DNA of 64,000 nucleotides from an uncultured Pseudomonadota bacterium (GCA_964570505.1 CAZMYL010000002.1:118608-182607); one strand, 5' to 3'; shown: positions 26,818 to 47,924, numbered from the stretch's first letter. Notes: generated by a model not told the origin, from the letters alone. A program made the numbers and translations.

Positions 26818-26883
26818 ATTGTATTTTCATAAAATAAAAAATAGGTAGTGTAAGAAACTCAAAAAAGCAAGGAGTTTGTGTGT

Positions 26884-28071
26884 ATGCGCCCAGTTATGGT
26901 AGTTGTAGGCACAAGGCCAGAAGGCATTAAAATGATGCCGCTTTATTTTGCACTAAAACAAGCAAATATTCCTACTATTTTATGCGCTACATCGCAACAC
27001 AGCACACTACTTTCAGACATTTTTTCTGTTTTTGGTGTTAGTCCCGATCTTGATTTAAAAATAATGAAACATAATCAAGATTTATTTCATGTAACAACTA
27101 CTGTTTTACATGAGATGCAAAATATTTATAAAAATTATCAACCTTCACTTGTCTGTGTTCAAGGAGACACTACAACAGTAATGGCTGCTGGAATGGCTGC
27201 TTTTTATAGCCGTATTCCTGTTGCTCATATAGAAGCAGGATTGCGTACTGGAGACTTTGATTCTCCTTATCCAGAAGAGTTTAATAGAACATCTCTTGGT
27301 CTTATAACTACCTATCATTTTGCACCTACAGCACAGGCTGTAGGAAATTTATTAGGTGAAGGCAAAAAAAGAGAAAATGTGTTTTATGTAGGTAATACGG
27401 TAGTTGATGCATTAAGAATTATTGAAAATAAAATTATTAATAAAGAATTAATAATTGACTGTTTAATAGAAAATTTTTTTAAAAATGCTCATGAATATGG
27501 TCATAATACATTATTATTTACTATGCATAGAAGAGAGTCTTTTGGGTATGGGCTTTATGTTATCCTTCAAGCTCTTAAAGATTTTGCTTTAACTCATCCC
27601 AATGTTGTTATTTTATACCCTTATCATCCAAATCCAGATGTACTTGAAATTATTAAAAAAATTAATCTTTCTTCTGTTGTAAATATTATTTTAGTAGAAC
27701 CTCTTTCATATAAAGATTTAGCGTATGTTTTATTAAATATTGATATTGTTGCAACAGATTCAGGCGGTATTCAAGAAGAGGCAGTAAGTCTAGGAAAGCA
27801 CGTTCTGGTTTTAAGAGAAAAGAGTGAAAGAATGGAAGGTGTATGGGAAGGCCTGGCTAGTATTATTGGATTTAATGCTGAAAAATTTACTGTAGAGCTT
27901 GAAAAAATTTTAAATAATCTTTCATTAGTTTTTGTAAGAAAAAATATTTATGGCGATGGTTTTGCTTCTGAAAAAATTGTAAAAATTATTCAAAATCGAT
28001 GTATGGATTTTCAAGAAGATTCTTCATCGTTAATGAACAATGTACGTCATGTACATGAGGAGATGCGATAA
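26884..28071 (+). CDS. wecB: UDP-N-acetylglucosamine 2-epimerase (non-hydrolysing)
   Basis: VVVGTRPEGIKM and HIEAGLRTGD. AAGGAG lies 9 nt before ATG 26884. Confidence 0.92.
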   Translation: MRPVMVVVGTRPEGIKMMPLYFALKQANIPTILCATSQHSTLLSDIFSVFGVSPDLDLKIMKHNQDLFHVTTTVLHEMQNIYKNYQPSLVCVQGDTTTVMAAGMAAFYSRIPVAHIEAGLRTGDFDSPYPEEFNRTSLGLITTYHFAPTAQAVGNLLGEGKKRENVFYVGNTVVDALRIIENKIINKELIIDCLIENFFKNAHEYGHNTLLFTMHRRESFGYGLYVILQALKDFALTHPNVVILYPYHPNPDVLEIIKKINLSSVVNIILVEPLSYKDLAYVLLNIDIVATDSGGIQEEAVSLGKHVLVLREKSERMEGVWEGLASIIGFNAEKFTVELEKILNNLSLVFVRKNIYGDGFASEKIVKIIQNRCMDFQEDSSSLMNNVRHVHEEMR

Positions 28072-31600: not shown

Positions 31601-31857
31601 TAGTTAGTAAAACTATGACAAAAATTTTTTTGTCAGCATTTCTTTGCTTGTGGATTATGAATATTTTTGATTTATAATTTTATTATTGCAGTTGGCATGT
31701 TGTTTTTTAACTTTTTACTATATTTATATAACTGCACATAATTTATTAGGCTCTTGCTGCGCATTTTTAGCTTCTTGCTTATTTTTATCCTGCAGAGTAT
31801 CGTTTTAGTCGGCATTTTATTGAGACTATTTCGTTGTCATAGTAAAAAAGGAAGCAT

Positions 31858-32880
31858 ATGAAAGATGTTCGAGTACATGCTGTTATTTTAGCTGATGAAA
31901 GTGGCGAGCGTCTTTGGCCGTTAAGTCGTAAAACTCATCCTAAACAAACATTACCTTTTATTCAGGATACATCGCTTCTTGAGCAAACTATTGAAAGAAT
32001 TTCTTCCCATATTCCCCAGCAGCGTCGTTGGATTGTAACTAATGTAGAATGTGAAGATTTTATTGTAGAAAAAGTAGGCAGTCTTGTTGCTGGTGTTATT
32101 GTAGAACCAGAATTTAGAGATACAGCTGCAGCTATGCTTCTTGCTACATCATTAATTCTTCAACAAGATCCTGATGCTATATTGCTTTTTTTGCCATCTG
32201 ATCATTATATACCGCAAAAAGAACTGTTTTTAGAATTTGTACATCATGCAATAGATTATGTTTCTACGCATGAAAAAATTACTTTTTTTGGGGTTAGGCC
32301 TTTGCATCCTACTGCGGATTATGGATATATAGAATATGCTTTAACAGATACATATCCATGTAAGGTTAAGAATTTTTATGAAAATCCAACAACAGAGTCT
32401 GCTTATGGGTATTTTCGTGCTGGATGTATATGGAATACTCGTATATCAGCTATGAGTGGGAAAGTTTTTGTAAATATTGTAAAAGAAATTGCAATAGAGG
32501 TTTTTGAAGCAGTTACTAATTATGTTGAAGGGTGCGGTGATTATGCAGAAGCTCCTTCACTTTCTTTTGAATCGCTTTTTATCAATAATACTGATTATAT
32601 TACTGTATTGCCATCTGATTTTATTTGGCAGGATATTGGAAATTTAGAAAAATTTTTATCTTTAAAAAATTCGCTTCATTCAGAAGAAAATCTGATACAA
32701 ATTGATGCAAAAGACAACTTAGTAGAAGCTGAAGGATCTTTGGTTGCAGTAGTTGGGGTTGATAATATTTGTGTCATAAAAAAAGATGATATTTTATTAA
32801 TAGTTCATCGTGATCAGGTTGAAAAAGTAAAACAAATTATAGATACGCTTAAAAAAGGCCATAAAGAGGAATATTTATAA
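31858..32880 (+). CDS. sugar-1-phosphate nucleotidyltransferase (mannose-1-P guanylyltransferase-like)
   Basis: AVILADESGERLWPLSRKTHPKQ (GxGxRLxPLS) and GYIEY. At 340 aa it has no PMI/cupin extension. Confidence 0.85.
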   Translation: MKDVRVHAVILADESGERLWPLSRKTHPKQTLPFIQDTSLLEQTIERISSHIPQQRRWIVTNVECEDFIVEKVGSLVAGVIVEPEFRDTAAAMLLATSLILQQDPDAILLFLPSDHYIPQKELFLEFVHHAIDYVSTHEKITFFGVRPLHPTADYGYIEYALTDTYPCKVKNFYENPTTESAYGYFRAGCIWNTRISAMSGKVFVNIVKEIAIEVFEAVTNYVEGCGDYAEAPSLSFESLFINNTDYITVLPSDFIWQDIGNLEKFLSLKNSLHSEENLIQIDAKDNLVEAEGSLVAVVGVDNICVIKKDDILLIVHRDQVEKVKQIIDTLKKGHKEEYL

Positions 32881-32881
32881 T

Positions 32882-34840
32882 ATGTGTGGATTTGCTGGTT
32901 ATATAAAAACAACATCAAAAGAATTTTTAATTGATGAGAAAATATTTGAATCTATTCATACACGTATTGCTCATAGAGGTCCTAATGCGCATAAAGTATG
33001 GTTTGATAAAGATTTAGAAATTGCACTTATTCATAGAAGATTAAGCATAGTTGATTTAACAGATGCTGGTATTCAGCCAATGTTTGATAAAGAGAAATCT
33101 GTTGTCATTTGTTTTAATGGGGAAATTTATAATTATAAATCATTGCAAAAAGAGCTTGAAAATCTTGGTTATACATTCGTATCAAAGTCTGATACAGAAG
33201 TTTTTTTATATGCATTTAAAGAATGGGGCATTGCTTGTCTTGATAAGTTAGAAGGAATGTTTTCTGGTCTTGTAGGTAATTTAAAAACAGAAGAATGGTT
33301 TTTATTTAGAGATCGTATGGGTATTAAACCGCTTTACTTTTCAGTTGAAGGTGGATATATAAGTTTTGCTTCAGAAATTAAAGCACTTACAGAACTTCCT
33401 TGGATTAAAAAAGAGCTGAATCAGCGTGGTGTTTATCATTATTTAACGTATATGGTAACACCAGCTCCTTTAACTTTTTATCAAGGTATTTATAAGCTGC
33501 CAGCTGCTCATTATATTAAAATTGATAGTCATAAAAAAGTGACATTTCATGAATGGTATTCATTTTTAAAGCCAAGCATTATTTATGATAAAAAAGATCT
33601 TAATAATGAAGAATTTTGTGTAACAACTATTCGATCTTTATTAAAAGAAGCTGTCCAAAAGCGTATGATAGCAGATGTTCCCTTTGGTGTTTTTTTATCG
33701 GGGGGTATTGATTCTAGTTTAAACGTTGCCTTAATGTCTGAATTTACCGATAAAGTTAAAACATTTAATGTTTCTTTTTCAGATGGGCCTGAATATTGCG
33801 AAGTTGAATGGGCTCGCAAAGTATCAAAAATATATAATACAGAACATCATGAAATTACTATTTCAGAAAAAGAAGCATTTGAATTTTTTGAAAAAATGGT
33901 TGATTTTCAGGATGAACCAATTGCTGATTGTGTGTGTATTCCATTGTATTATGTATCAAAATTATTAAAAGATTCAGGTGTTACAGTTGTTCAAGTTGGT
34001 GAAGGTTCAGATGAACTTTATTGTGGTTATCAAAATTATGTTAATTATGTAGATGCTTATAAGAAATATTATCAACCGGCTCGTTACATACCTCAATCAA
34101 TAAAGCAGGCAGGTGTTTGGCTTGCAGCACAAGCATTTCCTACAAAGACTTATCATAGAGCTCTTCTTGAACAATGGGCGTCAGGCCGCCATCTTTTTTG
34201 GAGTGGCGCAATGGCTTTTCAGGAGTTACAGAAAAAAACTTTATATACAAAAATTAATCAACATGATTATGACCCTATTCTTGAAAAAATTTATCCTGGA
34301 TTTGATCAATCATTTGATAGCTATGCAATTGTTGATTATCATTTAAAAAAATTGTATCAAGAAGATCCGCATGCTGATTTTTTAAAATCAATTACTTATT
34401 TAGAATTAAAACAACGTCTTCCAGAGCTTCTTTTAATGCGTGTTGATAAAATGACTATGGCAACTTCGGTTGAAGGGAGAGTTCCCTTTTTAGATCATAA
34501 ACATGTTGAATTTGCGCTTCAAATTCCTAGCCATTTAAAATATAAAAATGGTCAAGCTAAATACATTCTTAAAAAAGCATGTGAAGGTATTTTACCTCAT
34601 GACGTTATTTATCGTAAAAAGGTTGGCTTTGCTGCTCCTATTACACGATGGTTTAAGGAAGGCAATTATTTTAGGCCTTATTTTAAAGATCTTTTAATAA
34701 AAAAAATGAAAAAAAATTCATCGTTTTTAAATCAATATGAAATTGAATCTATGTTAAATAAAACAGAATGTGGAACAATTGACCACTCAGTTCACTTATG
34801 GGTAACTCAAAACCTTTTAGCTCATGAGTTGATAGGTTAA
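32882..34840 (+). CDS. asparagine synthase-like glutamine amidotransferase (WbpS/AsnB-type)
   Basis: The N-terminal MCGFAGY places the nucleophile Cys at position 2. PP-loop SGGIDSS. Confidence 0.92.
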   Translation: MCGFAGYIKTTSKEFLIDEKIFESIHTRIAHRGPNAHKVWFDKDLEIALIHRRLSIVDLTDAGIQPMFDKEKSVVICFNGEIYNYKSLQKELENLGYTFVSKSDTEVFLYAFKEWGIACLDKLEGMFSGLVGNLKTEEWFLFRDRMGIKPLYFSVEGGYISFASEIKALTELPWIKKELNQRGVYHYLTYMVTPAPLTFYQGIYKLPAAHYIKIDSHKKVTFHEWYSFLKPSIIYDKKDLNNEEFCVTTIRSLLKEAVQKRMIADVPFGVFLSGGIDSSLNVALMSEFTDKVKTFNVSFSDGPEYCEVEWARKVSKIYNTEHHEITISEKEAFEFFEKMVDFQDEPIADCVCIPLYYVSKLLKDSGVTVVQVGEGSDELYCGYQNYVNYVDAYKKYYQPARYIPQSIKQAGVWLAAQAFPTKTYHRALLEQWASGRHLFWSGAMAFQELQKKTLYTKINQHDYDPILEKIYPGFDQSFDSYAIVDYHLKKLYQEDPHADFLKSITYLELKQRLPELLLMRVDKMTMATSVEGRVPFLDHKHVEFALQIPSHLKYKNGQAKYILKKACEGILPHDVIYRKKVGFAAPITRWFKEGNYFRPYFKDLLIKKMKKNSSFLNQYEIESMLNKTECGTIDHSVHLWVTQNLLAHELIG

Positions 34841-34842
34841 TT

Positions 34843-35514
34843 ATGAACCAAAAATTGATACTATATCTTCGCACAGATATATGCGATCAAGAGCTTTTGG
34901 CAGGTGGTTCTGTTGCTCATACAGTAGGAGTAATTACAGGATTTGCTTCGCTTGGGTATTCAATTTTTTGCGCTTCATCATCTATGCATAAAATTCTTAA
35001 AAAATTACCTCTTTTTCAGTTTGTAAAACTTTCAAATCCACAAATATTTTATTTTTTTCGATGGAAAGTAAATTGTTTTTTGTCTTCATATTTTTTCTTT
35101 GTAATTATTATTTTTAAGCTTAAAAATAAAGACCTTGAGTTTATTTACCAACGATATAGTCTCTTGAACATGACTGGCGTATTACTTGCTTGGTGGTATA
35201 AAAAAAAATTAATTCTTGAGTATAACGGGTCAGAAGTTTGGATTGTAAATAATTGGTCTAAAAAGAAACGATGGATAAAGTTTGAGTGGTTAATGAAGCG
35301 TGTAGAGTTTATAAACCTGCACAAAGCAGATGCGATTGTAGTGGTATCTCAAGTTCTTAAAGAAGAACTTATTCAGTTTGGTGTAGAAGAAAAAAAGATT
35401 CTAGTAAATCCTAACGGCGTTAATACTGATCTTTTTAGACCATCTCATTATGAGGCAAAAGAATATGCAAATAATTATTACATCAAAAAAGAGTTGGAAA
35501 AACATAATCTCTGA
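34843..35514 (+). pseudogene. glycosyltransferase fragment: N-terminal half of a GT4-like paralog of 39066-40355
   Basis: LILYLRTDICDQELLAGGSVAHTVGVITGF and ILVNPNGV align with the 429-aa paralog. Similarity stops at about nt 35440, and the last ~25 codons run out of frame into wzm. The whole C-terminal nucleotide-sugar domain is absent. Confidence 0.6.
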
Positions 35515-36277
35515 ATTGTGGGACTATAGAGAAGTTTTTATTTTTCTTGGTTGGCGTGATATTTTAGTGCAATATAAACAGACTTCTTTGGGTGTAGCAT
35601 GGGTTATTTTACGACCGCTTCTGACCGTTACTATTTTTACTGTAATTTTTAGTCGTATTGCTGGTATAGATTCTCAAGGAGCTCCCTATCCATTAATGGT
35701 ATTTTCTGGAATGCTTGTATGGCAATTTTTTGCAGATATGTTGACCTTTGGGAGTAATTGTTTTTTGGCAAATCAACAACTTATTTCAAAAGTTTATTTT
35801 CCTCGATTATTACTTCCTGCAAGTCGTGTATTGTGTAGTTTAGTTGATTTTTGTATAGCATTTACATTTTATATCCTTTTATCTGTTATTAGATATCATG
35901 TTATTCCTCCAATTAATTTTTTTTTGCTTCCTATTTTTTTATTATGGCTAGTTGTTTTTGCTTTTAGTATTAGTCTTTTTTCTGCATCACTTATTGTATG
36001 TTATCGTGATTTTCGTCATGTTATTCCATTTGCAACACAACTTGGAGTCTATATAACTCCTGTTGGATTTAGCCTATCAATGGCACCACGGTATGTTCAG
36101 TATATTTTGGCATGTAATCCTTTAACAGGCATTATTAATGGATTTCGTTATGCACTTTTTGGAGAGCTTCTTGTTCCAGAGGTAATAGGCATTTCATTAT
36201 TAATGACTCTTGTTTGTGCAGTTTTTAGCATAGTTTATTTTAAATCAGTAGAAGGCGCTTTTGCTGATAAAATTTGA
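35465..36277 (+). CDS. wzm: ABC-2 type polysaccharide export permease
   Basis: ELWDYREVFIFLGWRDILVQYKQTSLG N-terminal signature and 6 TM helices. The start is set at ATG 35465. Confidence 0.85.
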   Translation: MQIIITSKKSWKNIISELWDYREVFIFLGWRDILVQYKQTSLGVAWVILRPLLTVTIFTVIFSRIAGIDSQGAPYPLMVFSGMLVWQFFADMLTFGSNCFLANQQLISKVYFPRLLLPASRVLCSLVDFCIAFTFYILLSVIRYHVIPPINFFLLPIFLLWLVVFAFSISLFSASLIVCYRDFRHVIPFATQLGVYITPVGFSLSMAPRYVQYILACNPLTGIINGFRYALFGELLVPEVIGISLLMTLVCAVFSIVYFKSVEGAFADKI

Positions 36278-36286: not shown

Positions 36287-37549
36287 ATGAATGCAATAAA
36301 GGTTGAAAACCTTACAAAAATATATAATGTAGCTGATTCTCAAGAAGGAACAATAGGATTTAGAGAGCTTATATCTCAGCAATTTTTATCTTTATTTTCT
36401 AAACAAGAAAAAACAAATTCTTTTTACGCTTTAAATGATGTTTCATTTGAAGTTAAGCCTGGAGAAGTACTTGGTATTATTGGAAAAAATGGTTCAGGCA
36501 AAAGTACATTGCTTAAAATTTTAAGCCGTATTACGGCTCCTACAAGTGGTAAAGTAACTATCAATGGTCGAGTTGCGAGTTTACTGGAAGTAGGAACTGG
36601 CTTTCATGAAGATCTTACTGGTCGTGAAAATATTTTTATGAGTGGAATTATTCTTGGTATGAAGCGCTGGGAAGTATATAAATATTTTGACGAAATTGTT
36701 GCATTTGCAGGGGTTGAAAAATTTATTGACACTCCTGTTAAAAAATATTCTTCAGGAATGCGCTTAAGATTAGCATTTTCTGTTGCCGCGCATCTTCAAC
36801 CAGAAATACTGTTGATAGACGAAGTTCTTGCAGTTGGAGATTATGAGTTTGAAAAAAAATGTATAGGACTTATGGAATCAGTTGCTAGCACTGGTAGAAC
36901 AATTTTATTTGTTTCTCATAATTTTGCTGTTGTTCGAAGATTATGTAAAAAGGCTATTTTGTTATCTCAAGGTAAGTTACTGTTTAGTGGGCTTACTAAT
37001 GATGCAATTTCAAAGTACATGATTGGACATAAAAAAGAAAAAGGTTCTATTGTATGGGATCAAGCAAATCTTCCCGGAGATGAATATATAACTATTAACT
37101 CAGTAAAAACATTTTGCACGAAGGGTCAATTACAAGAAATTTTTATGTCTGATGAAGAGATTTTAATAAGTGTCGATTATAGTGTTTTAAAAGAGCAAGA
37201 GCCTTTTTCTATTATGTTTTGGTTCTATAATGATGAAGGTGTTTTAATATTTTCATCTCTTGATACAGTAAATCCTGATTGGCATGATAGAAAACGAAAT
37301 GTTGGATCTTATGTAAGTACATGTAAAATTCCAAAATTTTTATTCAATCCAGGAAATATCTTTGTATCACTTTATATTGCAACTCCAACAAAAGGTTGGA
37401 GGTTTGTGATTCATGAAGTTATTAGTTTTTTGGTAGTTCAACCATTTGAAAATAAAAAAATTGTTGGAGATTGGAGATGGGCATGGCCAAATGTTGTAAT
37501 CCAACCTTGTATAGAATGGGATGTTCTTTATAAAAGGGATAATGTTTAA
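36287..37549 (+). CDS. wzt: polysaccharide ABC transporter ATP-binding protein with C-terminal glycan-binding-type extension
   Basis: Walker A GKNGSGKST, signature YSSGMRLRLAF, Walker B LLIDEVLAVGD, then a ~170-aa beta-rich C-terminal domain as in Wzt proteins. Confidence 0.92.
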   Translation: MNAIKVENLTKIYNVADSQEGTIGFRELISQQFLSLFSKQEKTNSFYALNDVSFEVKPGEVLGIIGKNGSGKSTLLKILSRITAPTSGKVTINGRVASLLEVGTGFHEDLTGRENIFMSGIILGMKRWEVYKYFDEIVAFAGVEKFIDTPVKKYSSGMRLRLAFSVAAHLQPEILLIDEVLAVGDYEFEKKCIGLMESVASTGRTILFVSHNFAVVRRLCKKAILLSQGKLLFSGLTNDAISKYMIGHKKEKGSIVWDQANLPGDEYITINSVKTFCTKGQLQEIFMSDEEILISVDYSVLKEQEPFSIMFWFYNDEGVLIFSSLDTVNPDWHDRKRNVGSYVSTCKIPKFLFNPGNIFVSLYIATPTKGWRFVIHEVISFLVVQPFENKKIVGDWRWAWPNVVIQPCIEWDVLYKRDNV

Positions 37550-38316
37550 TGGAAAAAAATAAAAATACATCGAATAAAATGTTTTTTGATTTATATCATG
37601 AAACGCGTACTCAGTTTCTTGATATATCTGATAAAGATAAGCTTGATTGGTTTTCTTTTTATTATAAAGAAGTTTATGAATCGTATATTTCTCATAAATC
37701 TAAAAATTCTTCTATTTTAGATTTAGGTTGTAATAAAGGATATTTGTTAAAAACGCTTAAGGATGAAGGTTTTACAAATTTAACTGGTGTTGATTTATCA
37801 GTTCAAGATATAAAAATTGCTGAAAAAATTATTCCAGAAGCGCATCTTGTTGTAGATGATATTTACCATTTTTTAAAAACAACAGAACAATATTTTGATA
37901 TTATTTTTTTAAAGGCAGTCATTGAGCATTTAGAAAAAAACAGAGTAGTTGAATTATTGCAATTAATTTCTCAAAGACTTTCTCCAAAGGGTTTTGTTAT
38001 TATTGATGTGTATAATGCTGATTGGCTTTTTTCTAATCATGATCGCTATATGGACTTTACTCATGAAACAGGTTTTACAAAAGATAGCTTAAGGCAGGTT
38101 ATGTTATTTGCTTTTAAAATTGTAGAAGTTTCGACTATTGCCAGCCCTATTAATTTTAAAGCTTATAATGCTTCCAGATTATCTTCTTTCAAAGAATCAA
38201 TACGTTATTTAATTATGAGAAAAATTATAAAATTTTGTATTGAATCTATTGAGCCAGAAATGAAAGAAATTCCTTTTATGGATAGATTGTTGTTGGGTGT
38301 TGGAAAAAATGAATAA
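37549..38316 (+). CDS. class I SAM-dependent methyltransferase
   Basis: Motif I ILDLGCNKGY. ATG shares one nt with the wzt TAA. Confidence 0.8.
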   Translation: MEKNKNTSNKMFFDLYHETRTQFLDISDKDKLDWFSFYYKEVYESYISHKSKNSSILDLGCNKGYLLKTLKDEGFTNLTGVDLSVQDIKIAEKIIPEAHLVVDDIYHFLKTTEQYFDIIFLKAVIEHLEKNRVVELLQLISQRLSPKGFVIIDVYNADWLFSNHDRYMDFTHETGFTKDSLRQVMLFAFKIVEVSTIASPINFKAYNASRLSSFKESIRYLIMRKIIKFCIESIEPEMKEIPFMDRLLLGVGKNE

Positions 38317-38332
38317 TTAAGTCTGGTAATTT

Positions 38333-39085
38333 ATGGTTATACAAACAATATATGGTTCTTTGACTCGTTATGAGTGGATAAAAAATTTTCTTAATAAAAA
38401 TCAAATAATAATAGATCTTGGTTGTGGAACAGGAGCAATGATTACTCTTCCTTTATTAAAAGAAGGATATAATGTTTTTGGAATTGATTTATGCTCTAAA
38501 AGTATTGAATACGGAAAAGAGCTTTTTGTAAAAGAACAAATTTCTTCGGAGCGATTGATTTGTTCGGATCTTAAAGATGTTAATTTGCTTCCAGATGTAA
38601 TAATTCTTTCAGAGGTTTTGGAACATTTAAATGATAACCAATTTGATTCTTTAATGAAATTGTGTTTTCAAAAAATATCAAAAGATGGATTAATTTTAAT
38701 TACTGTACCAAATGGATGGGGTTTTTTTGAATTAGATAGTTATATTTGGTTTAAATTAAAACTAGGTAAATTTTTGTCTTGGTCTAAAATTGAAAATTTT
38801 TTGATTATTGCAAAAAATAAAATTTTAAAAAAAAATACAATTATTTCTATTCCTTCATCTCTTGACACTTCTCCTCATATTCAGCGTTTTACATATACTA
38901 AATTGCCTGAAAAGATAAAAAAATATGGGTTTAAAATTGTAGAAAAAAGGGGTGGCAGTTTAATAAGTGGGCCTTTATCTAATCTTTTATTTACAGGTTT
39001 TTCTACAATAATGAGCATTAATATGTTTTTAGGTAAAAAATTGCCGTATATAGCAGCAGACTTTTATGTTGCACTACAAAAATAA
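38333..39085 (+). CDS. class I SAM-dependent methyltransferase
   Basis: Motif I IIDLGCGTGAM, and an acidic loop FGIDL. Confidence 0.8.
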   Translation: MVIQTIYGSLTRYEWIKNFLNKNQIIIDLGCGTGAMITLPLLKEGYNVFGIDLCSKSIEYGKELFVKEQISSERLICSDLKDVNLLPDVIILSEVLEHLNDNQFDSLMKLCFQKISKDGLILITVPNGWGFFELDSYIWFKLKLGKFLSWSKIENFLIIAKNKILKKNTIISIPSSLDTSPHIQRFTYTKLPEKIKKYGFKIVEKRGGSLISGPLSNLLFTGFSTIMSINMFLGKKLPYIAADFYVALQK

Positions 39086-40355
39086 TTTTATTTTATATCT
39101 TAGAACTGATATTTGTGGAGACCAAATTAATACAGGAGGCTCTGTAAGTCATACGATAGGAGTTATTGATGGCTTTCAAGCAAAAAAATATAATGGTATA
39201 ATTTTTTCATCACAAATGAGAGAGGTTTTATCTCAAAAAAAAGATATTATTTATTACAATCTTTGTGCTGTTTCATTTTTATTTTTGCGCTGGAAATTTA
39301 ATTATTTACGTTGGCGTCTTGAATCTTTTTTTTCAACATTTTTTTTCTTTTTTAAAATTCTTTATTTTTCTAAAAATATTAAATTTTCTTATATTTATCA
39401 TCGTTATAGCATTTTAAATTTTACAGGATTGTTATTGAGTTGGTATAAAAAAATTCCATTAATACTGGAATATAATGGCTCTGAAGCATATTGGTTTGAT
39501 GTTCCATCTAATGATGTATGGTACCGTAGATGGTTTGCTTTTAGAAAACTTTCTTATGTAGTAGAAAATTTAAATATTAAATATGCACAAAGTATAGTTG
39601 TTGTTTCTAAAGCGCTTAAAGATGATCTTATTGCAAGAGGAATTAATCATAATAAAATTTTGGTTAATCCTAATGGGGTTGATCAACTTTATTTTGAAAG
39701 TAATCGTGTTATGGAAAAAAGAAATAGTATTCGCAGTAGGTATAATTTTGAAAAATCATTTGTTTTTGGGTTTGTTGGTACATTTGGTCATTGGCATGGT
39801 ATAGAAGTTTTAGAGCATATAATTCCTATTGTATGTAATAAAAAGCCTGAAGCACGGTTTTTGCTTATTGGGGATGGTCTTTTAAAAGAAAAAGCGCAAG
39901 AAGCTCTAAAGGAATATATTATAGAAGGTAAGGTGATATTTACAGGAAAAACTGCTCAAGAAGAAGCACCAAATTACCTTTCGGCATGCGATGCTTTTTT
40001 ATGTCCTACACAGCCAAATGTAGACGGAACTCGTTTTTTTGGTTCTCCAACTAAGCTTTTTGAATATATGAGCATGGCAAAACCTGTTTTTGCTTCTGAT
40101 TTAGAACAATTAAGTGAAGTAATTTTTCCAGCAATAAAAACTTTTGAAAACGAAAATTGTAATGTTATAGATGAAGTTGGATTTTCGATAGATCCACTTG
40201 ATTGGGATGCGTGGGTAAAAGCATGTTGTATGTGCATTGAAATGAATTCAAAACAGAGAGCATTATTGGGCAGCAATGCTCGTGCTAAGGTTCTGAATAA
40301 CTATACATGGCAAAAGCATGTAGAAAATATTATTAATCATATAAAAAGGGTGTGA
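39066..40355 (+). CDS. GT4-type (GT-B) glycosyltransferase, full length
   Basis: N-half shared with the 34843 fragment. C-half has GFVGTFGHWHG and FGSPTKLFEYMSMAKPVFASD (E-x7-E region). Confidence 0.85.
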   Translation: MLHYKNNFILYLRTDICGDQINTGGSVSHTIGVIDGFQAKKYNGIIFSSQMREVLSQKKDIIYYNLCAVSFLFLRWKFNYLRWRLESFFSTFFFFFKILYFSKNIKFSYIYHRYSILNFTGLLLSWYKKIPLILEYNGSEAYWFDVPSNDVWYRRWFAFRKLSYVVENLNIKYAQSIVVVSKALKDDLIARGINHNKILVNPNGVDQLYFESNRVMEKRNSIRSRYNFEKSFVFGFVGTFGHWHGIEVLEHIIPIVCNKKPEARFLLIGDGLLKEKAQEALKEYIIEGKVIFTGKTAQEEAPNYLSACDAFLCPTQPNVDGTRFFGSPTKLFEYMSMAKPVFASDLEQLSEVIFPAIKTFENENCNVIDEVGFSIDPLDWDAWVKACCMCIEMNSKQRALLGSNARAKVLNNYTWQKHVENIINHIKRV

Positions 40356-41185
40356 GTGTGAATAATCAAAAAATTAAAAATATATCAAAGCAATTATGGG
40401 GTAGCGATCCTGCAGGAATGGTATTTGGTAAAGAATTTGAAAAAGGAAGCAAAAATTTTTTTGAGAGAGTACTTGAAAAAAGATTTTTATATGAGTGTCA
40501 GTGGCTTAATGAAATTGTTGATTTTAGTCGATTTAATAAAAAAAATATTTTAGAAATAGGTTGTGGTGCCGGTTATGATGCATATCAATTTTGTAAAAAT
40601 GGTGCATTTTATACCGGAATTGATCTGACTCCTGAAAATATACTTCTTGCTAAAAAGCATCTTTTTTATTATGGATTTATGCCTACTATTTTAGAATTAG
40701 ATGTGGAGAAAATGAATTTCGATTCTTTATTTGATTTTATATTTAGTTTTGGGGTGTTGCATCATACTCCATCTATAATAGAAGCATTAAAAGGGATACA
40801 TAGGGCATTAAAAATGGGAGGAGAAGCTCAAATTATTGTGTATCATAAAAATTCAATTTTTTATCGAATTCATTTGTTTTTATTTGATTGGATTTTACGT
40901 GGTAAATTTTTAAAAATGTCTTTTAAAAAAAGATTGTCTCAAATAGAGTTTACAACTTTAGATGTAGAGCCATTAGTAAATGTTTATAGTAAAAAAGAGC
41001 TTATTTTGCTTATGGAGTCGACGGGGTTCAAGGTCATAAAAATTGATATTAGAAAATTAAATAGAGAAGATTTGCCGCTAATTCCATTTGTTGAAAAATT
41101 GTATAAATATATTCCTGATTCATTGCTTTATTTTTTTAGTAAAAAATGGGGATGGTATCTTTCTGTGCGTGCAATAAAACAATAA
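40352..41185 (+). CDS. class I SAM-dependent methyltransferase
   Basis: Motif I ILEIGCGAGYDA. The GTG start overlaps the GT4 stop by 4 nt. Confidence 0.8.
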   Translation: MSVNNQKIKNISKQLWGSDPAGMVFGKEFEKGSKNFFERVLEKRFLYECQWLNEIVDFSRFNKKNILEIGCGAGYDAYQFCKNGAFYTGIDLTPENILLAKKHLFYYGFMPTILELDVEKMNFDSLFDFIFSFGVLHHTPSIIEALKGIHRALKMGGEAQIIVYHKNSIFYRIHLFLFDWILRGKFLKMSFKKRLSQIEFTTLDVEPLVNVYSKKELILLMESTGFKVIKIDIRKLNREDLPLIPFVEKLYKYIPDSLLYFFSKKWGWYLSVRAIKQ

Positions 41186-41199
41186 TCTATAGTAAAATA

Positions 41200-42144
41200 A
41201 TGAATACAAATAAATTATATTACTTGTTTTTAACAGGGTTTCTTGTTTTCTTTATATTTATTAATATTTTTGGAATACATATTCTTAGAAAATACAATTA
41301 TTTTTTTAGAGCTATTCCTGTTTCTGATATGTCGTCATTAGAATATTCATTTCCTTGTCAAACGCCTTCTCAGATTCAACAATTATGTGGTAGTACACAT
41401 CAAGAAACGCTTAAAAATGTTATGAATTTTGTTTCCTGTAAAAATAAATCAATAGTGCCTTTAAGTGATAATGTTCAAAGTTTTTTTGAATGTGCTAAAA
41501 ATGAAGGTGTTTTAACATGTAATGGAATGGCAGAATTATATCTTCATGCGCTTAGGCTTCAAGGTGTTAAAGCGCGCAAATTATTTGTAGTTAAAAATTT
41601 TGGAGATCCTTATCAATCACATACTACGGTAGAAATTTTTATTGATGGCAAATGGCGTATTTTTGACCCAACGTTTCATGTCAGTTTTAAAAAAAATGAC
41701 CAATTATTAGGAGCTCAAGACATTGCAGAATCTATTATAGATGGATCATTTTCAAAAATTGAACCAGTTTTTTATGGTGAAGTAAATTATTCTTGCCGGC
41801 TTGATTCTTATTATATGCATTGGTTGTCATTGTATAATAATATTTTGCTTTTTAAGTATCCTCAACCTGTATCTTCAGTTGTGCAAAAATTAATGCAACA
41901 ACTTACGCGTTACTGGAATGGGCCAGTTTTATACTATTTTTCTCAAGATGGCCTGGTCAATAGGTATTTTGAAATACTGAATAGAGTATATTTTTTAATT
42001 ATTTGTATACTTCCGCTTATGATAATTTTAATTGTTTTTTTATTGCTCCTGATTATTCTTATCGAGATATATAAAAAAAGAATATGCATATTAAAAAAAG
42101 GTGAGCATGTTATATCAAAATGTATTTCAAAAAAAATTACTTAA
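41200..42144 (+). CDS. membrane-anchored transglutaminase-like (Cys-His-Asp) domain protein
   Basis: N-terminal TM LYYLFLTGFLVFFIFINIFGI. Putative triad context LTCNGMAELYLHALRLQGVKARKLFV ... HTTVEIFIDGKWRIFDPT. C-terminal TM. Confidence 0.7.
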   Translation: MNTNKLYYLFLTGFLVFFIFINIFGIHILRKYNYFFRAIPVSDMSSLEYSFPCQTPSQIQQLCGSTHQETLKNVMNFVSCKNKSIVPLSDNVQSFFECAKNEGVLTCNGMAELYLHALRLQGVKARKLFVVKNFGDPYQSHTTVEIFIDGKWRIFDPTFHVSFKKNDQLLGAQDIAESIIDGSFSKIEPVFYGEVNYSCRLDSYYMHWLSLYNNILLFKYPQPVSSVVQKLMQQLTRYWNGPVLYYFSQDGLVNRYFEILNRVYFLIICILPLMIILIVFLLLLIILIEIYKKRICILKKGEHVISKCISKKIT

Positions 42145-42186: not shown

Positions 42187-43356
42187 ATGCTGAAAAGTAG
42201 AATATTTAACCTTTTAAATACTTTTTATGCTTATAAAAAGTATGGTCAATTATTGTTATTTTCTAACCAAAACATTGTTTCTAAATTATCTTGTTGCGAT
42301 GATTTAGGTCTTTTTATGTATGTTCCATTTTTTAGTTCATTATTTGGTTTGGACCCTATTGTAGGGTCAAAATTCTTTTTTTTAGGATTATTAAGTATTT
42401 TTTTTCTAATAATTGGAGTTTGTTTTTTTTCGCTTGTTAAAAATATAGGTGCTGCTTTAGCTGTTAGTTTTGGATTATATCGATTAATACATCCATTTTA
42501 TGAACTTTCTGATGTTTATTTAGGATATGTATTGCCCTTTGTAGCAATCCCATTGCTTCTTGTATCGCTTGAAAAAAATAATAAAAAACTGTTTTTAACT
42601 AGTTTTTTTGTTGCTGGTCTGGTTGGAAGTTTTTCTGATATTTTACGCATTCTTTCATCAACTCCTGTTATAGTATTTTTTTTAATTATTTTGCTTTTTA
42701 ATACTTTATATACACGGTACAAAAAAATAATACCTTTGTTGTTTTTGCTTGCAGGATATTCTATTCCTTATGTTCATTTTAACTATGTTTTGCATCAACG
42801 AGATTTGTTTTTAAAAAATAATCATTATCAGCAACAGGATGTTCCTATACAACATGTTTTTTGGCATAATATGTATATAGGTTTTGGATTTTTGAAAAAT
42901 AATCATGATATTACCTGGGAAGATTCATGCGGAGAGCGTCATGCAAGAGAAATAGTTCCTGGGGTAGAAGTTGGTTCGCCTGTTTATGAAAAAACTATAA
43001 GAAATTTAATTTTTAATTTAATTAAAAATGATCGTTATTTTGTAGCCAACACCTTATTTGCAAAATTTGGAATTTTAATTTTTTTCTTTTGTTTATATTT
43101 TGGATTTTTAGGCCTTTTGGCTTCTTATTTTGTTCCTAAAGCGTGGTATGTAGAACTTGCATTTTTATGTTGCGCTGGCGTAAGTGCTTTACCAGGTCTT
43201 TTAACAATTCCCGTTACGGCATATTTAATTGGATTTATTACGTGTACCATTTTTTATTCCATATATAGTCTTATGTATTTTTTTAATAACAATGGATTGA
43301 CGGAGATTGAAAAAAGCTTTAAAAAATTTTTGCTTATCATAAAAAATACTCGGTAA
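42187..43356 (+). CDS. uncharacterised polytopic membrane protein, paralog A
   Basis: About 10 hydrophobic helices. Shares FWHNMYIGFGF and SALPGLLTIP blocks with the 44301-45494 ORF. Confidence 0.7.
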   Translation: MLKSRIFNLLNTFYAYKKYGQLLLFSNQNIVSKLSCCDDLGLFMYVPFFSSLFGLDPIVGSKFFFLGLLSIFFLIIGVCFFSLVKNIGAALAVSFGLYRLIHPFYELSDVYLGYVLPFVAIPLLLVSLEKNNKKLFLTSFFVAGLVGSFSDILRILSSTPVIVFFLIILLFNTLYTRYKKIIPLLFLLAGYSIPYVHFNYVLHQRDLFLKNNHYQQQDVPIQHVFWHNMYIGFGFLKNNHDITWEDSCGERHAREIVPGVEVGSPVYEKTIRNLIFNLIKNDRYFVANTLFAKFGILIFFFCLYFGFLGLLASYFVPKAWYVELAFLCCAGVSALPGLLTIPVTAYLIGFITCTIFYSIYSLMYFFNNNGLTEIEKSFKKFLLIIKNTR

Positions 43357-43360
43357 TGTT

Positions 43361-44383
43361 ATGAAAAAAATAATATCAATTGTTGTACCTGTTTTTAATG
43401 AAGAGGTAAATCTTTTTAACTTATATGCAGCGCTTCAAGAAGTTTTTATTTTTTTAGAGCCTTTGTATAATTATGAAGTTATTTTGATAGATGATGGCAG
43501 TAAAGATGCGTCATGGTCATTAATGCAGAAGCTTGCAGATAAAGATTTTCATATAAAAATTATTTCTTTTTCTCGTAATTTTGGTCATCAAATGGCATTA
43601 ACAGCAGGGTATGACATTGCTTGTGGTGATGCTATTGTTACCATAGACGCTGATTTGCAAGATCCTCCATCGGTCATTATTTCTATGATACAAGAATGGG
43701 AAAAAGGGTATTATATTGTCTATGCACGTCGATTAACTCGAAAAGATAGTTTTTTTAAAAAAATTGTAGCAGCAGTTTATTATTATATTTTACATCTTAT
43801 TGCTGATGTTTCTATACCACGAAACGTAGGAGATTTTAGGCTTATTGATAGAAAAGTTTTAGATAGTATTAAAAGTATTAGAGAGACAACATGTTATTGG
43901 AGAGGTATGGTTGCATGGACAGGCTTTCCGCATACTTTTGTTGATTTTAAAAGAGAAGAAAGAGCTGGTGGAACTCCAGGATATACATGGAAAAAAAGCT
44001 TTAAGCTAGGTATTGATGGTATTACTGGTTTTTCTTCGTTTCCTTTAGAAATAGCAGCATATATAGGTTTTTTTGTTGTTATTACAGGTAGCCTGATGCT
44101 TTCTTATATTACATATGATGCAATTGTTAATACTATTCGATATCCACTTTTTAAGTGGCTTACTACGATAGTGTATATTTTTATGGGTGTTCAATTTTTG
44201 CTTATGTGGTTAGTTGGTGAATATATTGGACGTATTTATATGCATCAAAAAAGTAGGCCTCTTTATTTAATTAAAGAACAAAATTTAGGAAAATCTGTAT
44301 ATGAAAATAATGCCTATACGGCTAGAAGTTCTAAATCAAGCATATCAAGCAGTTCAAGAAACAGGACAAATGCTCATTCGTAA
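43361..44383 (+). CDS. GT2 polyprenyl-phosphate glycosyltransferase (GtrB/ArnC/DPM1-like), copy A
   Basis: SIVVPVFNEE, DDGSKD and [10 protein letters not shown], plus two C-terminal TM helices. Confidence 0.9.
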   Translation: MKKIISIVVPVFNEEVNLFNLYAALQEVFIFLEPLYNYEVILIDDGSKDASWSLMQKLADKDFHIKIISFSRNFGHQMALTAGYDIACGDAIVTIDADLQDPPSVIISMIQEWEKGYYIVYARRLTRKDSFFKKIVAAVYYYILHLIADVSIPRNVGDFRLIDRKVLDSIKSIRETTCYWRGMVAWTGFPHTFVDFKREERAGGTPGYTWKKSFKLGIDGITGFSSFPLEIAAYIGFFVVITGSLMLSYITYDAIVNTIRYPLFKWLTTIVYIFMGVQFLLMWLVGEYIGRIYMHQKSRPLYLIKEQNLGKSVYENNAYTARSSKSSISSSSRNRTNAHS

Positions 44384-45494
44384 GCTTTCAAGTGGTATAT
44401 TAATTCCTGCAGAATATCAATTTGGTGGTGATATTGGATGTACGTATGCAATAACATTTATATCAAAAATATTTAATTTAGAACTATCAGATTCAATCTT
44501 CGTTTTTTATGCATTTTTTATAACAATAAGTTTGATTGTTGCATCAGTTGGAATGTGTTGCTTTACAAAATCATATAAAACTCGATTTTTTTCTTTTATG
44601 AGTATTTTGTTGTTAGCATATGTTTCTTGGTCTATTGGTGATGAATATACTATTAGTTTTTGCGCAGCAGCCTATGTACCTTTAATACTTTATATATTTG
44701 AAAAAAAAGATAAAAATATGACTGCAAGTATTTGTTTTTTAGTAGGCATTCTTGTAGTTATATTTAATTTTTTTAGAATTCATACAGGTACATTACTTGC
44801 GCTTGTTGTATGTGCTTGCATTGGGATGTCTGCTTATAACAAAAAAGTAAAAATTCTTTTATTAAGTTTGTTTTGCTTTGGATATTTTGGAATGCAATAT
44901 TTTATTAAGTCTCTTTTTATACAAAGAAATGAATATTTAAAAGCTCATGGTTATTATGCATCTTCTCAAGGTCATAAACATACTTTTTGGCATAATGTTT
45001 ATCCTGGGTTTGGTTTTATAGAAAATGATAAAAATCTTTATTTCTCAGATAACTGTTCTGCCTATAAGGTAAAAACTATAAATCCATCAACTGTATATTT
45101 ATCTAAGGATTATGACCATATTTTAAAGCATGAAGTTTTTAAACTTATTCTTTATAGTCCACATTTTGTACTGAGAGTTGTTTTTGCAAAATTAGGGGTT
45201 CTTTTTTATTATTTTATTCTTTGTTTATTACCTGCCTTTTGGGCTTTGTTTTTGCCCTATATGCCACTTAGGATTCATATACCTTATTGGATAGCTATGT
45301 TGTGGGGAGCGCTTCCTGGGTTATTAACTATTCCTAATGTTTTATATCTACTTGGATTTATTGCAACTGCATGGTTATATGGATTGCATCTTATAATATA
45401 TGCATTGAATATGAACAACTTTTATTTTTATATGCGCACTACCAAGCTTTTTTTTGTGCAATTATTCCATAAAGTCCGCCTAATGGAGCTTTAG
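44301..45494 (+). CDS. uncharacterised polytopic membrane protein, paralog B
   Basis: FWHNVYPGFGF and GALPGLLTIP blocks. N-terminal similarity to paralog A (N..Y....GQ(L/M)L ... D-(L/I)-G) supports the early start, which overlaps the GT2 tail by 83 nt. Confidence 0.7.
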   Translation: MKIMPIRLEVLNQAYQAVQETGQMLIRKLSSGILIPAEYQFGGDIGCTYAITFISKIFNLELSDSIFVFYAFFITISLIVASVGMCCFTKSYKTRFFSFMSILLLAYVSWSIGDEYTISFCAAAYVPLILYIFEKKDKNMTASICFLVGILVVIFNFFRIHTGTLLALVVCACIGMSAYNKKVKILLLSLFCFGYFGMQYFIKSLFIQRNEYLKAHGYYASSQGHKHTFWHNVYPGFGFIENDKNLYFSDNCSAYKVKTINPSTVYLSKDYDHILKHEVFKLILYSPHFVLRVVFAKLGVLFYYFILCLLPAFWALFLPYMPLRIHIPYWIAMLWGALPGLLTIPNVLYLLGFIATAWLYGLHLIIYALNMNNFYFYMRTTKLFFVQLFHKVRLMEL

Positions 45495-46155
45495 TAAGAT
45501 ATTTTTCTAAAGGTCGCAGAATCCGTAAAATATTAGGAAAAAAACAATAAAATATAAGTTCTTTGTAGTAAGGATAAAAGAGTTTTTTTGCATACCAAGG
45601 AGTGAGCATTGTTGCATTTTGATCAATTGGATTGCGATTAAAAATGTAACGAGTTCCTGGATTTATTGGGTTTAATTCAAAAACAATCAAAAACCCTTGT
45701 GGTTTAAGAACACGCATACATTCTTTTTTATAATGATGATGCATTTCAAAAGGAATATGATGAAATACTCCAGCTGCATAGATAACATCAAAAGTATTGT
45801 CTTCAAAAGGAATTTTTTCGTGTGAAATTGAAAATGAAATATTTACGTAGTTTTTATGAGCAACTTCTATGCTTTCAGGAGATGGGTCAACACCAAAGCA
45901 TGTAGAATTTGGAAACAAATTTTTAACTGCAGCAGTCATTGCTCCATCTCCGCAACCAAAGTCCAATATAGTAGATGGATTTTGAATATTGTATCGAGAG
46001 AGCCATTCTTTAAGTTTATGAGCTTTTAAAGTAATAAAATAATCAAAGCTTTCTCCTGTTGGTGCGCAGTGTACATTAAGATTTTCTCTATAGTTATCAA
46101 TATAATTATCAAATTCTGTAAGTGTTGGTTTTTTATTTTTGTGCAATTGTTCCAT
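45439..46155 (-). CDS. class I SAM-dependent methyltransferase (tandem paralog 1)
   Basis: ILDFGCGDG, GVFHHIPFE, MLTPWYAKK, IFYCFFP. Confidence 0.85.
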   Translation of the reverse strand: MEQLHKNKKPTLTEFDNYIDNYRENLNVHCAPTGESFDYFITLKAHKLKEWLSRYNIQNPSTILDFGCGDGAMTAAVKNLFPNSTCFGVDPSPESIEVAHKNYVNISFSISHEKIPFEDNTFDVIYAAGVFHHIPFEMHHHYKKECMRVLKPQGFLIVFELNPINPGTRYIFNRNPIDQNATMLTPWYAKKLFYPYYKELIFYCFFPNILRILRPLEKYLTKAPLGGLYGIIAQKKAW

Positions 46156-46813
46156 AAAGTCCTCCGAAAGGTATTTTTGTTAACCATTTTTCAATTAGTC
46201 GTAATTTTTTTAAAAATTTAGGAAAGAAACAATAAAAAATTGTTTCTTTGTAAAAATCATTTGTTATTTTTTTTGCATACCAAGGAGTGAGCATTTTTGC
46301 ATTTTTTTCCATAGGATGACCATTAAAAATATATTGAGTTCCTGGATTAAGAGGATTGAGTTCAAATAATATAAGAATTCCTCCAGGTTTTAAAATGCGA
46401 TATAATTCTTTGATGCAATTATTATGTTTTTCAAAAGGTATGTGATGAAAAACTCCAGCACAATAAATAATATCAAACATATTCATTTTAAATAATTCTA
46501 AAGACTCTCCTAATTCATAAAATGTACAATCAGGAGCATTTTCTTTTGCAAGATGTATACTTTCAATTGATGGATCAACTCCAATAATGTGTGATAATGG
46601 AAAGAGTTTTTTAACTTCATAGCTCATAATTCCATCGCCACATCCAAAATCAAGAATATATGCTGGGTTATGTAATTTATAATTGGTTGCCCACATTTTT
46701 AATTTTTCTGCTTTTAGCTTTGCAAAATAATGGCTGTTTTCTCCGGTAGGTGATAAATATTTTGTTTGTTCTTGACGATACTGTGTAGCAAATTGGTCAA
46801 ATTCATGATTCAT
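46133..46813 (-). CDS. class I SAM-dependent methyltransferase (tandem paralog 2)
   Basis: Same blocks as 45439-46155. There is a 23-nt overlap with its paralog. Confidence 0.85.
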   Translation of the reverse strand: MNHEFDQFATQYRQEQTKYLSPTGENSHYFAKLKAEKLKMWATNYKLHNPAYILDFGCGDGIMSYEVKKLFPLSHIIGVDPSIESIHLAKENAPDCTFYELGESLELFKMNMFDIIYCAGVFHHIPFEKHNNCIKELYRILKPGGILILFELNPLNPGTQYIFNGHPMEKNAKMLTPWYAKKITNDFYKETIFYCFFPKFLKKLRLIEKWLTKIPFGGLYGTIAQK

Positions 46814-46925
46814 TTTGTATGCTCCTTTTTTATTTGTATCAATTACTATCAGATGCTAATGTTTTTTGGTCAAGAAAAAAATATAATGCATACTTATGAA
46901 AGTTTAGTTTAAAGAGCGTAGATAT

Positions 46926-47924
46926 ATGAAAAAAATATCAATTATTATTCCGGTATATAATGAAGCATCTAATATTACTGTTTTGTATGATCGACTTGTT
47001 GCAATAGCACAAAAATTACCATCATATATTTTTGAATTTATATGTGTTAATGATGGGAGTTTTGACAACTCTTGGCAATTAATTGAAAATCTTTCGCTTC
47101 AAGATTCTAGAGTTAAAGGTATTTCTTTTTCTCGTAATTTTGGTTATCAAATGGCTCTTACGGCAGGGCATGATCATGCAACAGGAGATGCAATTATAAC
47201 GATAGATGCAGATTTGCAAGATCCACCAGAATTAATTATAGCTATGGTAAAAAAATGGGAAGAAGGTTTTTTTATTGTTTATGCACGTCGTTTAAGTAGA
47301 AATGATGGGTTTTTAAAAGATATTACTGCTAGTTTGTATTATAAATTATTAACTGCAGTATCAGATGTTCCTATTCCTGAAAATGTAGGAGATTTTCGTC
47401 TTATTGATCGTGAAGTTCTGAAACAAATAAATAACTGTAGAGAGCGTTTTAGATATTGGAGAGGTATGGTAGCCTGGACAGGCTTTACTCATACATTTGT
47501 CTACTTTACACGCCCAGAAAGGGTATCTGGGCAAACAGGATATACCTGGTTAAAGCTTTTAAAATTAGCATTTGATGGCATTACAAGTTTTTCTATGTTT
47601 CCTTTAAAAATTGCTGCCTATATTGGTTTTTTTGTAATTATTACTGGAAGTTGCATGTTTTTTTATATTAGCTGTGATGTATTTTTATGGGGAGCTCGTT
47701 ATCCACTTTTTAAATGGCTTGTAACTATTATCTATATTTTTATGGGAATACAATTTTTGTTAATGTGGTTGCTTGGTGAATATATAGGCCGTATGCATGA
47801 TCAACAAAAACAACGGCCTTTATATATTGTGCAAAAAAGTTGTGGATATAGTTTTAAGACGCCTCAATTAATAGTTAATAATAGTGTAAATAATTCGGTT
47901 TCTTCGCCTCACAAAGTATTGTAA
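46926..47924 (+). CDS. GT2 polyprenyl-phosphate glycosyltransferase (GtrB/ArnC/DPM1-like), copy B
   Basis: [15 protein letters not shown] and [10 protein letters not shown], plus two C-terminal TM helices. Collinear with copy A along its whole length. Confidence 0.9.

Follow-up and report, generated by a model that had tools for sequence, protein, structure and literature searches.

Compact membrane proteins encoded beside GtrB-type glycosyltransferases form a candidate GT-C transferase family in bacterial surface-glycan clusters

Results

We analyzed a 64,000-nucleotide stretch of DNA from an uncultured Pseudomonadota bacterium (GCA_964570505.1, CAZMYL010000002.1:118608-182607; hereafter the window), in which positions 42187-47924 encode two family 2 glycosyltransferases (GT2a and GT2b) and two polytopic membrane proteins (M1 and M2) of an unnamed, GT-C-like family. 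Open reading frame (ORF) translation places M1 (389 amino acids (aa)) at 42187-43356, GT2a (340 aa, GtrB/ArnC type) at 43361-44383 and M2 (397 aa) at 44301-45494, all on the plus strand. The three genes form a single tight block with a 4-nucleotide (nt) gap after M1 and an 83-nt overlap between GT2a and M2. GT2b (332 aa, the second GtrB/ArnC-type enzyme, 46926-47924, plus strand) lies 1.4 kb past this block. The interval is occupied on the minus strand by MT4, a class I S-adenosylmethionine (SAM) methyltransferase of 238 aa (45439-46155, PF08241, E 1.4e-21), and by its tandem paralog MT5 (226 aa, 46133-46813, PF08241, E 1.6e-18). All four ORFs that the initial annotation had given for M1, GT2a, M2 and GT2b were recovered at its coordinates. 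It had also described the module as two GT2 genes, each paired with one M gene; the GT2 and M components and their adjacency stand, but the genes do not fall into two tidy pairs, GT2b being apart from the M1-GT2a-M2 block, and the SAM methyltransferases, which recur as partners in related genomes, had been overlooked.

M1 and M2 share 27% sequence identity over 373 residues (E 2e-32), in agreement with their proposed paralogy, and GT2a and GT2b share 61% (E 8e-139). The four lineages are kept as separate orthologs in related genomes (loci L003-L006), and the duplication of both partners is thus old. The public gene call for M2 (P0013, 374 aa) begins at 44370 and loses a conserved N-terminal helix. 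The 397-aa frame starting at 44301 is probably the correct one judging from its translation, because it retains this helix together with a near-invariant arginine common to M1 and its homologs, and because its overlap with the non-conserved tail of GT2a is found again in L003.

Both GT2 enzymes match PF00535 in a Pfam scan (E 8.5e-30 for GT2a and 1.5e-31 for GT2b), contain the sequence IDADLQDPP and end in two C-terminal transmembrane (TM) helices by hydropathy. They align with the solved Synechocystis GtrB structure (PDB ID 5EKP) over their full length including the TM helices (GT2a residues 5-306, E 2.5e-71; GT2b residues 3-310, E 2e-77), and with three ArnC structures at E-values of 1e-36 to 1e-45. 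The DPM1/GtrB/ArnC architecture first assigned to them, a GT-A domain with the DADLQDPP block followed by two C-terminal TM helices, is therefore borne out for both and is co-linear with 5EKP. From these alignments, GT2a and GT2b can be securely predicted to be polyprenyl-phosphate glycosyltransferases. PgfS is the best NCBIfam match of GT2a and GT2b (234 and 225 bits, respectively, against an equivalog cut-off of 500), and ArnC scores 155 and 178 bits against an equivalog cut-off of 529 (the E-values for GT2a are 2e-69 for PgfS and 3e-45 for ArnC). Because both cut-offs are missed, the sugar moved by the two enzymes cannot be assigned.

M1 and M2 have no Pfam match even at E ≤ 1 and no NCBIfam match, and the view that they stand outside any named GT-C, Wzy or ligase family holds in both databases. 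Neither protein reaches the gathering score of the Wzy_C (PF04932), EpsG (PF14897), GtrC-type or YfhO-type Pfam models, and PMT_2 (PF13231) is absent both from the M1 and M2 results at E ≤ 1 and from the results listed for 120 family members at E ≤ 10. The same search with 120 members returned scattered noise and no consistent family; DUF6057 was seen in 6 of them, with a best E-value of 1.4e-3. Confident matches to EpsG, Wzy or O-antigen ligases, which the initial annotation had named as the outcome that would speak for a different role, were not found in Pfam, and profile comparison with hhalign gave 0.2% for a true Wzy_C protein. A literature search found no paper on the M family or on Dependentiae surface glycans, and tblastn against plasmids and phages gave no match.

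The family is large. Word-indexed homolog searches returned 12, 19 and 23 matches (the 12 and the 19 all unnamed or hypothetical) and strongly underestimated its size in comparison with an exhaustive hidden Markov model (HMM) search, which used a 22-sequence profile against clusters at 50% identity and found 1,478 representative clusters at E ≤ 1e-3, 597 of them at E ≤ 1e-30. Nearly all are matched over their full length, measure 370-480 aa and come from many phyla; M1 itself scores 389.6 bits against the family profile.

We calculated conservation over 120-134 diverse members and use M1 numbering throughout. Arg-154, Trp-226, Asp-246 and Pro-342 are invariant, and about 20 further positions are at least 90% conserved, among them Arg-5, Asp-38, Asp-39, Gly-41, Asp-109, Tyr-111, His-223, His-227, Tyr-230, Gly-232, Gly-234, Asn-238, Lys-293 and Tyr-346. 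Asp-38 is retained in 111 and Asp-39 in 114 of 120 members. M1 has all invariant residues, and the conserved set is intact in M2 except for a glycine at position 38 and an alanine at position 309. The signature motifs of the family are DDxG, HxFWHxxYxGFGF and ALPGxLTxP. The motifs originally quoted for the M proteins and for the GT2 enzymes are all present in the translations: the FWHN(M/V)Y.GFGF block reads VFWHNMYIGFGF in M1 and TFWHNVYPGFGF in M2, the second block SALPGLLTIP and GALPGLLTIP, and the N-terminal block CCDDLGL and GGDIGC, respectively.

A connection to known enzymes emerged from profile comparisons. A broader search with the M-family profile returned a single distant match, P0186 (E 7.8e-8), which passes the Pfam PMT_2 model (46.4 bits, cut-off 26.1). 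In hhalign, two family alignments, A4 and A3, match P0186 with probabilities of 95.6% and 96.2%, each over ∼200 columns that cover the central TM helices and the large outer loop. A second connection runs through family X, a group of unannotated polytopic proteins of 460-495 aa encoded beside M genes in L005 and L006, which matches the M family at 91.9% (E 7e-7) and P0186 at 97.6% over 336 columns. Family X begins with a classical GT-C TM1 followed by a loop of ∼90 residues; when M is aligned with X, the DD motif of the M family maps to the first outer loop of X, and Arg-154 coincides with a conserved arginine. The controls remained at 0.2% for a true Wzy_C protein (from L017), 0.1% for each of two Wzx flippases and 0.2% for family Y, and the maximum across all controls, including those with X or P0186 as the query, was 1.3%. 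A sequence search of the PDB with P0186 gave no matches. The profile-profile comparison, which had been proposed as a check, thus ties the M family to a genuine PMT_2 member. The data largely support a distant position of the M family within the GT-C superfamily, closest to the PMT_2/ArnT-like group and in none of the named families.

Family Y (461-466 aa, polytopic and unannotated) showed no relatives among the comparisons made. Families X and Y are interleaved with M and GT2 genes at L005:2067-9998 and L006:926-13874, and both are absent from the window. The L005 contig (JBLICC010000004.1) is filed as an Alteromonas naphthalenivorans metagenome-assembled genome (MAG); as its G+C content is 31% and its genes and their order are Babeliales-like, it is probably mis-binned.

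AlphaFold (AF2) models were calculated from the family alignment for M1 (predicted local distance difference test (pLDDT) 91.2, predicted template modeling score (pTM) 0.89) and for the 374-aa form of M2 (pLDDT 94.4, pTM 0.90). Searching the PDB with Foldseek, we found ArnT as the top match for M1 (PDB ID 5ezm, probability 1.00, E 9.8e-3), followed by AglB (0.92), Pmt2 (0.69) and then Pmt1, STT3, ALG9 and PglB. ArnT is also first for M2 (probability 0.84, best E 0.1), ahead of Pmt1 (0.63), AftB (0.57), PglB, Pmt4 and ALG3. All matches above noise are GT-C enzymes, the remainder being G protein-coupled receptor and transporter noise at probabilities of ≤0.12, and neither list contains WaaL, Wzy, RodA or SEDS entries. 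The suggested comparison with GT-C folds thus placed ArnT first for both models, although the scores are weak, and the fold evidence from these models, taken alone, is suggestive only.

GT-C enzymes have roughly 7-13 TM helices and carry one or more conserved acidic residues in the first extracytoplasmic loop. The M1 and M2 models and hydropathy yield nine TM helices, which fits this range and corrects an earlier count of about ten, plus an N-terminal amphipathic helix and hairpin. Across the family, the density of lysine and arginine is high in loops A-B, C-D and E-F and in the C-terminal tail, and very low in loops B-C and H-I. A signal-peptide-like hydrophobic segment is found in an N-terminal extension before the DD-bearing segment in 21 of the ∼130 members listed. 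From the charge distribution and these 21 signal-like segments we infer an N-out, C-in arrangement of the nine helices, in which the conserved polar residues would lie outside. The predicted external set comprises Asp-38 and Asp-39, Asp-109 and Tyr-111, Arg-154, Arg-205, His-223, Trp-226, His-227, Asn-238, Asp-246 and the ALPGxLTxP turn, with the DD motif at residues 38-39 of M1 borne by an external N-terminal mini-domain.

Linkage of M genes to GT2 genes was examined in 26 loci obtained by a genome-wide scan with the 22-sequence alignment; 24 are informative, the other two being cut at a contig end. The loci span Babeliales, Chlamydiae, Acidobacteria, Verrucomicrobia, Chlorobi, Pseudomonadota, Nitrospinaceae and Flavobacteriales. 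A GT2 gene adjoins or lies near an M gene in 22 of the 24 informative loci, from at least seven phylum-level lineages, in line with the co-occurrence that had been predicted for related genomes; it is absent in two. The GT2 is GtrB-like in 18 loci, usually less than ∼1 kb from an M gene, and two C-terminal TM helices were seen in 15 of these 18 (both GT2 copies are cut by the locus ends in L027, and the GT2 gene is split in L019). Four Chlorobi loci have a short soluble GT2 and a methyltransferase directly upstream of M. In several loci M genes outnumber GT2 genes, as would fit linkage-specific transferases that share one donor.

Methyltransferases form the second recurrent partner. In 13 of the 26 loci, an M gene has a small SAM methyltransferase gene at a distance of at most ∼300 bp, often in the order GT2-methyltransferase-M and with overlapping genes. 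Orthologs of MT4 occupy this position in L011, L012, L022, L024 and L027, which belong to other phyla, and an MT5-like gene adjoins an M gene in L014 and L015; a methyltransferase near M is also found in L016, L018, L025 and L028. Since the slot is filled by two different subfamilies, a functional connection seems more plausible than mere inheritance. In an acidobacterial MAG, a GtrB-like GT2 with two TM helices is fused to a C-terminal SAM methyltransferase (L020:7893-9935), and the next gene encodes an M domain fused to a C-terminal GT4 domain (L020:10004-12466). The M-GT4 fusion is also present in P0043 and P0068, proteins of ∼1,000 aa each.

We considered recurrent neighbors of 460-500 aa as a possible shared flippase and rejected them, since no single family accounts for them: Wzx, Wzy_C, Wzz and GT2 proteins occur among them together with unrelated enzymes and the two unannotated families of L005 and L006. 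Wzx-type genes are present in some related loci (L009, L024).

The module lies within a surface-glycan cluster that begins at ∼26.9 kb of the window. The closest match of the window is a Candidatus Babeliales (Dependentiae) MAG, whose M1 counterpart is 67% identical and whose gene order agrees, including the flanking housekeeping genes. Genes for sugar precursors come first on the plus strand (26878-35514: a WecB epimerase, a UDP-N-acetylmannosamine (UDP-ManNAc) dehydrogenase, a fused oxidoreductase, ManC, an AsnB-type amidotransferase and an N-terminal-half GT4). The last of these is a 223-aa ORF (34843-35514, plus strand) that comprises only the N-terminal GT4 half and runs into the beginning of wzm; since the related Babeliales MAG has the gene in this short version too, it is unlikely to be a recent pseudogene. 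The Wzm permease (35450-36277, plus strand, ABC2_membrane) and the Wzt ATPase (36287-37549, plus strand, ABC_tran) both have NCBIfam matches of the Wzm/Wzt/TagH type. Wzt carries a Wzt_C-like C-terminal domain whose score of 29.8 bits lies just below the 30.4 cut-off. From these domain matches, the pair is predicted to be the ATP-binding cassette (ABC) exporter for a lipid-linked glycan.

Downstream of wzt, and again on the plus strand, Pfam matches identify two SAM methyltransferases (37549-38316 and 38333-39085), a GT4 glycosyltransferase (39066-40355), a further SAM methyltransferase (40352-41185) and, together with hydropathy, a transglutaminase-like protein with two TM helices (41146-42144). 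The gene order from 37549 to 42144 is the same in the Babeliales MAG loci L001 and L003. The whole cluster contains five SAM methyltransferases. The position of two methyltransferase genes directly after wzt resembles O-polysaccharide exporters that recognize a methylated chain end. The transglutaminase-core protein, with one N-terminal and one C-terminal TM helix, is encoded directly upstream of M1 and is conserved beside M genes in L003-L006. No small multi-TM ORF resembling GtrA was found in the 64-kb window, and near the cluster none of 70-260 aa with at least three hydrophobic segments; the reported lack of a GtrA-like flippase is thus confirmed across the window, although a copy could lie elsewhere in the genome. 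Homologs of ArnA, ArnB, ArnD, ArnE and ArnF were not found among the scanned cluster genes.

Discussion

We consider it probable that M1 and M2 are compact, divergent and mostly TM1-less GT-C enzymes which use the polyprenyl-phosphate sugar made by the neighboring GT2 to decorate the ABC-exported glycan. The initial annotation had put them forward as candidates for a new extracytoplasmic transferase family; our data support such a role and indicate that the family, although distant, belongs within the GT-C superfamily. In the scheme that we propose, the Wzm/Wzt-linked cluster would assemble a polyprenyl-borne glycan in the cytoplasm before exporting it. GT2a and GT2b would each charge polyprenyl phosphate from a nucleotide sugar at the inner face of the membrane, where the adjacent SAM methyltransferases may methylate the loaded sugar. 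The lipid-linked sugar would then be flipped to the outer face, where M1 and M2 would attach it to the exported glycan at different sites. The near-invariant Asp-38 and Asp-39 are a putative base or metal site, and the basic and aromatic residues of the outer loops (Arg-154, Arg-205, His-223, Trp-226, His-227, Asn-238 and Asp-246) could bind phosphate and acceptor.

A more specific version of this scheme gives the SAM methyltransferase, which is fused to the synthase in the acidobacterial locus L020, a dedicated part. Together with the GtrB-type synthase and the minimal, TM1-less GT-C enzyme it would form a new kind of three-part system that needs no GtrA-type flippase of its own. The sugar would be methylated at the inner face, on its polyprenyl-phosphate carrier, and the M enzymes would add it to an exported glycan as an O-methylated side-branch or capping sugar. 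We regard this version as tentative and rather doubtful.

Several observations weigh against the assignment of M1 and M2 as GT-C decorating enzymes. The sequence link to GT-C proteins consists of one bridging protein, P0186, encoded on a 1.9-kb contig, and one small neighbor family; comparison of the M family with Escherichia coli ArnT alone reaches 2.3% in hhalign and is not significant, and sequence searches of the PDB with two family profiles gave no matches. No Foldseek match has an E-value of 1e-3 or better, and template modeling scores (TM-scores) range from 0.3 to 0.46. Most family members, M1 and M2 included, do not have the canonical first TM helix of GT-C enzymes, and in its absence an N-terminal tail of ∼55 residues containing several lysines and arginines would have to cross the membrane without a signal sequence. 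The fusions of M domains to a cytoplasmic GT4 correspond to no known GT-C arrangement and may point to another role. Finally, the 64-kb window contains no flippase candidate.

The same enzymes could instead act on proteins, as do PMT, PgfM and AglS, or on a lipid such as lipid A, as does ArnT. The nearest detectable relatives of the M family are PMT_2 and ArnT-like, and the best NCBIfam match of both GT2 enzymes is PgfS, the synthase of a streptococcal protein-glycosylation system (PMC12041528). In addition, the Chlorobi loci L016, L018, L025 and L028 showed only the GT2-methyltransferase-M arrangement among the few neighbors examined. In the window and in most other loci, however, M genes are found amid genes for Wzm/Wzt, GT4, AsnB, Wzz, Wzy_C and Wzx proteins, and the M-GT4 fusions link the family to glycan assembly enzymes. 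An acceptor other than the exported glycan thus appears unlikely.

A polymerase or ligase role is less likely still. As Wzy/WaaL-type enzymes, M1 and M2 would act on glycans carried by polyprenyl diphosphate, for instance by joining the ABC-exported polymer to lipid A-core, and not on the monosaccharide carrier produced by the GT2 enzymes. In favor of this role, O-polysaccharides exported by an ABC transporter require a ligase, for which the cluster has no annotated gene. The size of the proteins (∼390 aa) and the conserved arginine and histidine residues that abound in their large outer loop (Arg-154, Arg-205, His-223 and His-227) would also be compatible with such a function, as large Arg/His-rich outer loops recall the catalytic loops of WaaL and Wzy. 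EpsG gives a sub-threshold match in the fusion protein P0068 (E 2e-3), as does Wzy_C in a single one of the 120 members scanned (E 3.6e-3), but no member reaches the threshold of Wzy_C, EpsG or O-antigen polymerase models, the true Wzy_C protein aligns with the family at only 0.2%, and WaaL, Wzy and RodA are missing from both Foldseek lists. Two to four paralogs per locus, linked to GtrB-like genes, would be unexpected for a ligase, and L017 has a separate Wzy_C gene between two M genes. Such a role would also leave the association with GT2 genes without an explanation.

It is similarly improbable that M1 and M2 are non-catalytic and replace GtrA as a flippase or scaffold for the GT2-made polyprenyl-phosphate sugar, with another protein performing the transfer: the window contains no GtrA-, Wzx- or SMR-like gene, translation of the M genes is coupled to that of the GT2 gene, and the fusions with GT4 hint at a membrane protein that partners cytoplasmic enzymes, but the M family is homologous to GT-C enzymes and not to transporter families (0.1% in hhalign with Wzx proteins), its invariant polar residues are predicted to gather in outer loops on a single face and not to line a path through the membrane, several related loci have a separate Wzx-type gene (L009, L024), and the excess of M over GT2 genes per locus is more readily explained by acceptor specificity than by transport.

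Decoration of an exported glycan by M1 and M2 would have precedents. The GtrA-GtrB-GtrC systems of Shigella and Salmonella phages, which glucosylate O antigen, and related periplasmic three-component systems acting on ABC-exported O antigens have been reviewed (PMC11127046). As in these systems, a GtrB-type GT2 is encoded here beside a polytopic GT-C-like enzyme predicted to act at the outer face, within a Wzm/Wzt polysaccharide cluster, and the membrane enzyme occurs as multiple serotype-style paralogs. Unlike them, the window has no GtrA, M1 and M2 match no GtrC-type Pfam model, are shorter (∼390 aa) and mostly TM1-less, and a SAM methyltransferase is a recurrent extra partner. The ArnC-ArnT pair is similar in that ArnT is the best structural match of both M models and the GT2 enzymes match ArnC structures; M1 and M2 differ from ArnT in having no large C-terminal periplasmic domain, no PF13231 match and different signature motifs.

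CsbB-YfhO, GtlA-GtlB, GacI-GacL and PgfS-PgfM1/M2 (PMC8035078, PMC12041528) likewise combine a GtrB-like synthase with a GT-C-fold enzyme that decorates an exported polymer or protein. Compared with these Gram-positive two-step systems, the PgfS score is here far below its cut-off, the membrane partner has no match to YfhO or any other Pfam family, and the hosts are diderm. The three-component pentofuranose system of Citrobacter youngae contains a recently recognized GT-C family, GT136, which works in the periplasm and uses a lipid-linked monosaccharide to modify an O polysaccharide exported by an ABC transporter; the system comprises a phosphoribosyl pyrophosphate (PRPP)-dependent synthase, a MATE flippase and a GT-C enzyme with a carbohydrate-binding module (PMC11127046). 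It shares with the M family a previously unclassified GT-C enzyme and, as proposed here, an ABC-exported glycan as the target, but our module has a GtrB-type synthase, no flippase in the window and a minimal GT-C. The two-step scheme itself is thus known; the present system is set apart by a membrane enzyme of no named family that is minimal and mostly TM1-less, by a module without a flippase gene and by the recurrent methyltransferase.

GT-C enzymes set much of the diversity of bacterial surface glycans, yet they are hard to spot by sequence and many are labeled hypothetical. Naming the M family, with ∼1,500 clusters at 50% identity, would fill a recurring annotation gap in polysaccharide clusters. 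If our assignment is true, enzymes of ∼380 aa that mostly have no TM1 would be among the smallest of the GT-C type and could serve as a case for the minimal catalytic core. The link to methyltransferases suggests a route to methylated sugar decorations. That a Babeliales-like organism with a reduced genome keeps two synthases and two candidate transferases suggests that its surface glycan matters for its lifestyle.

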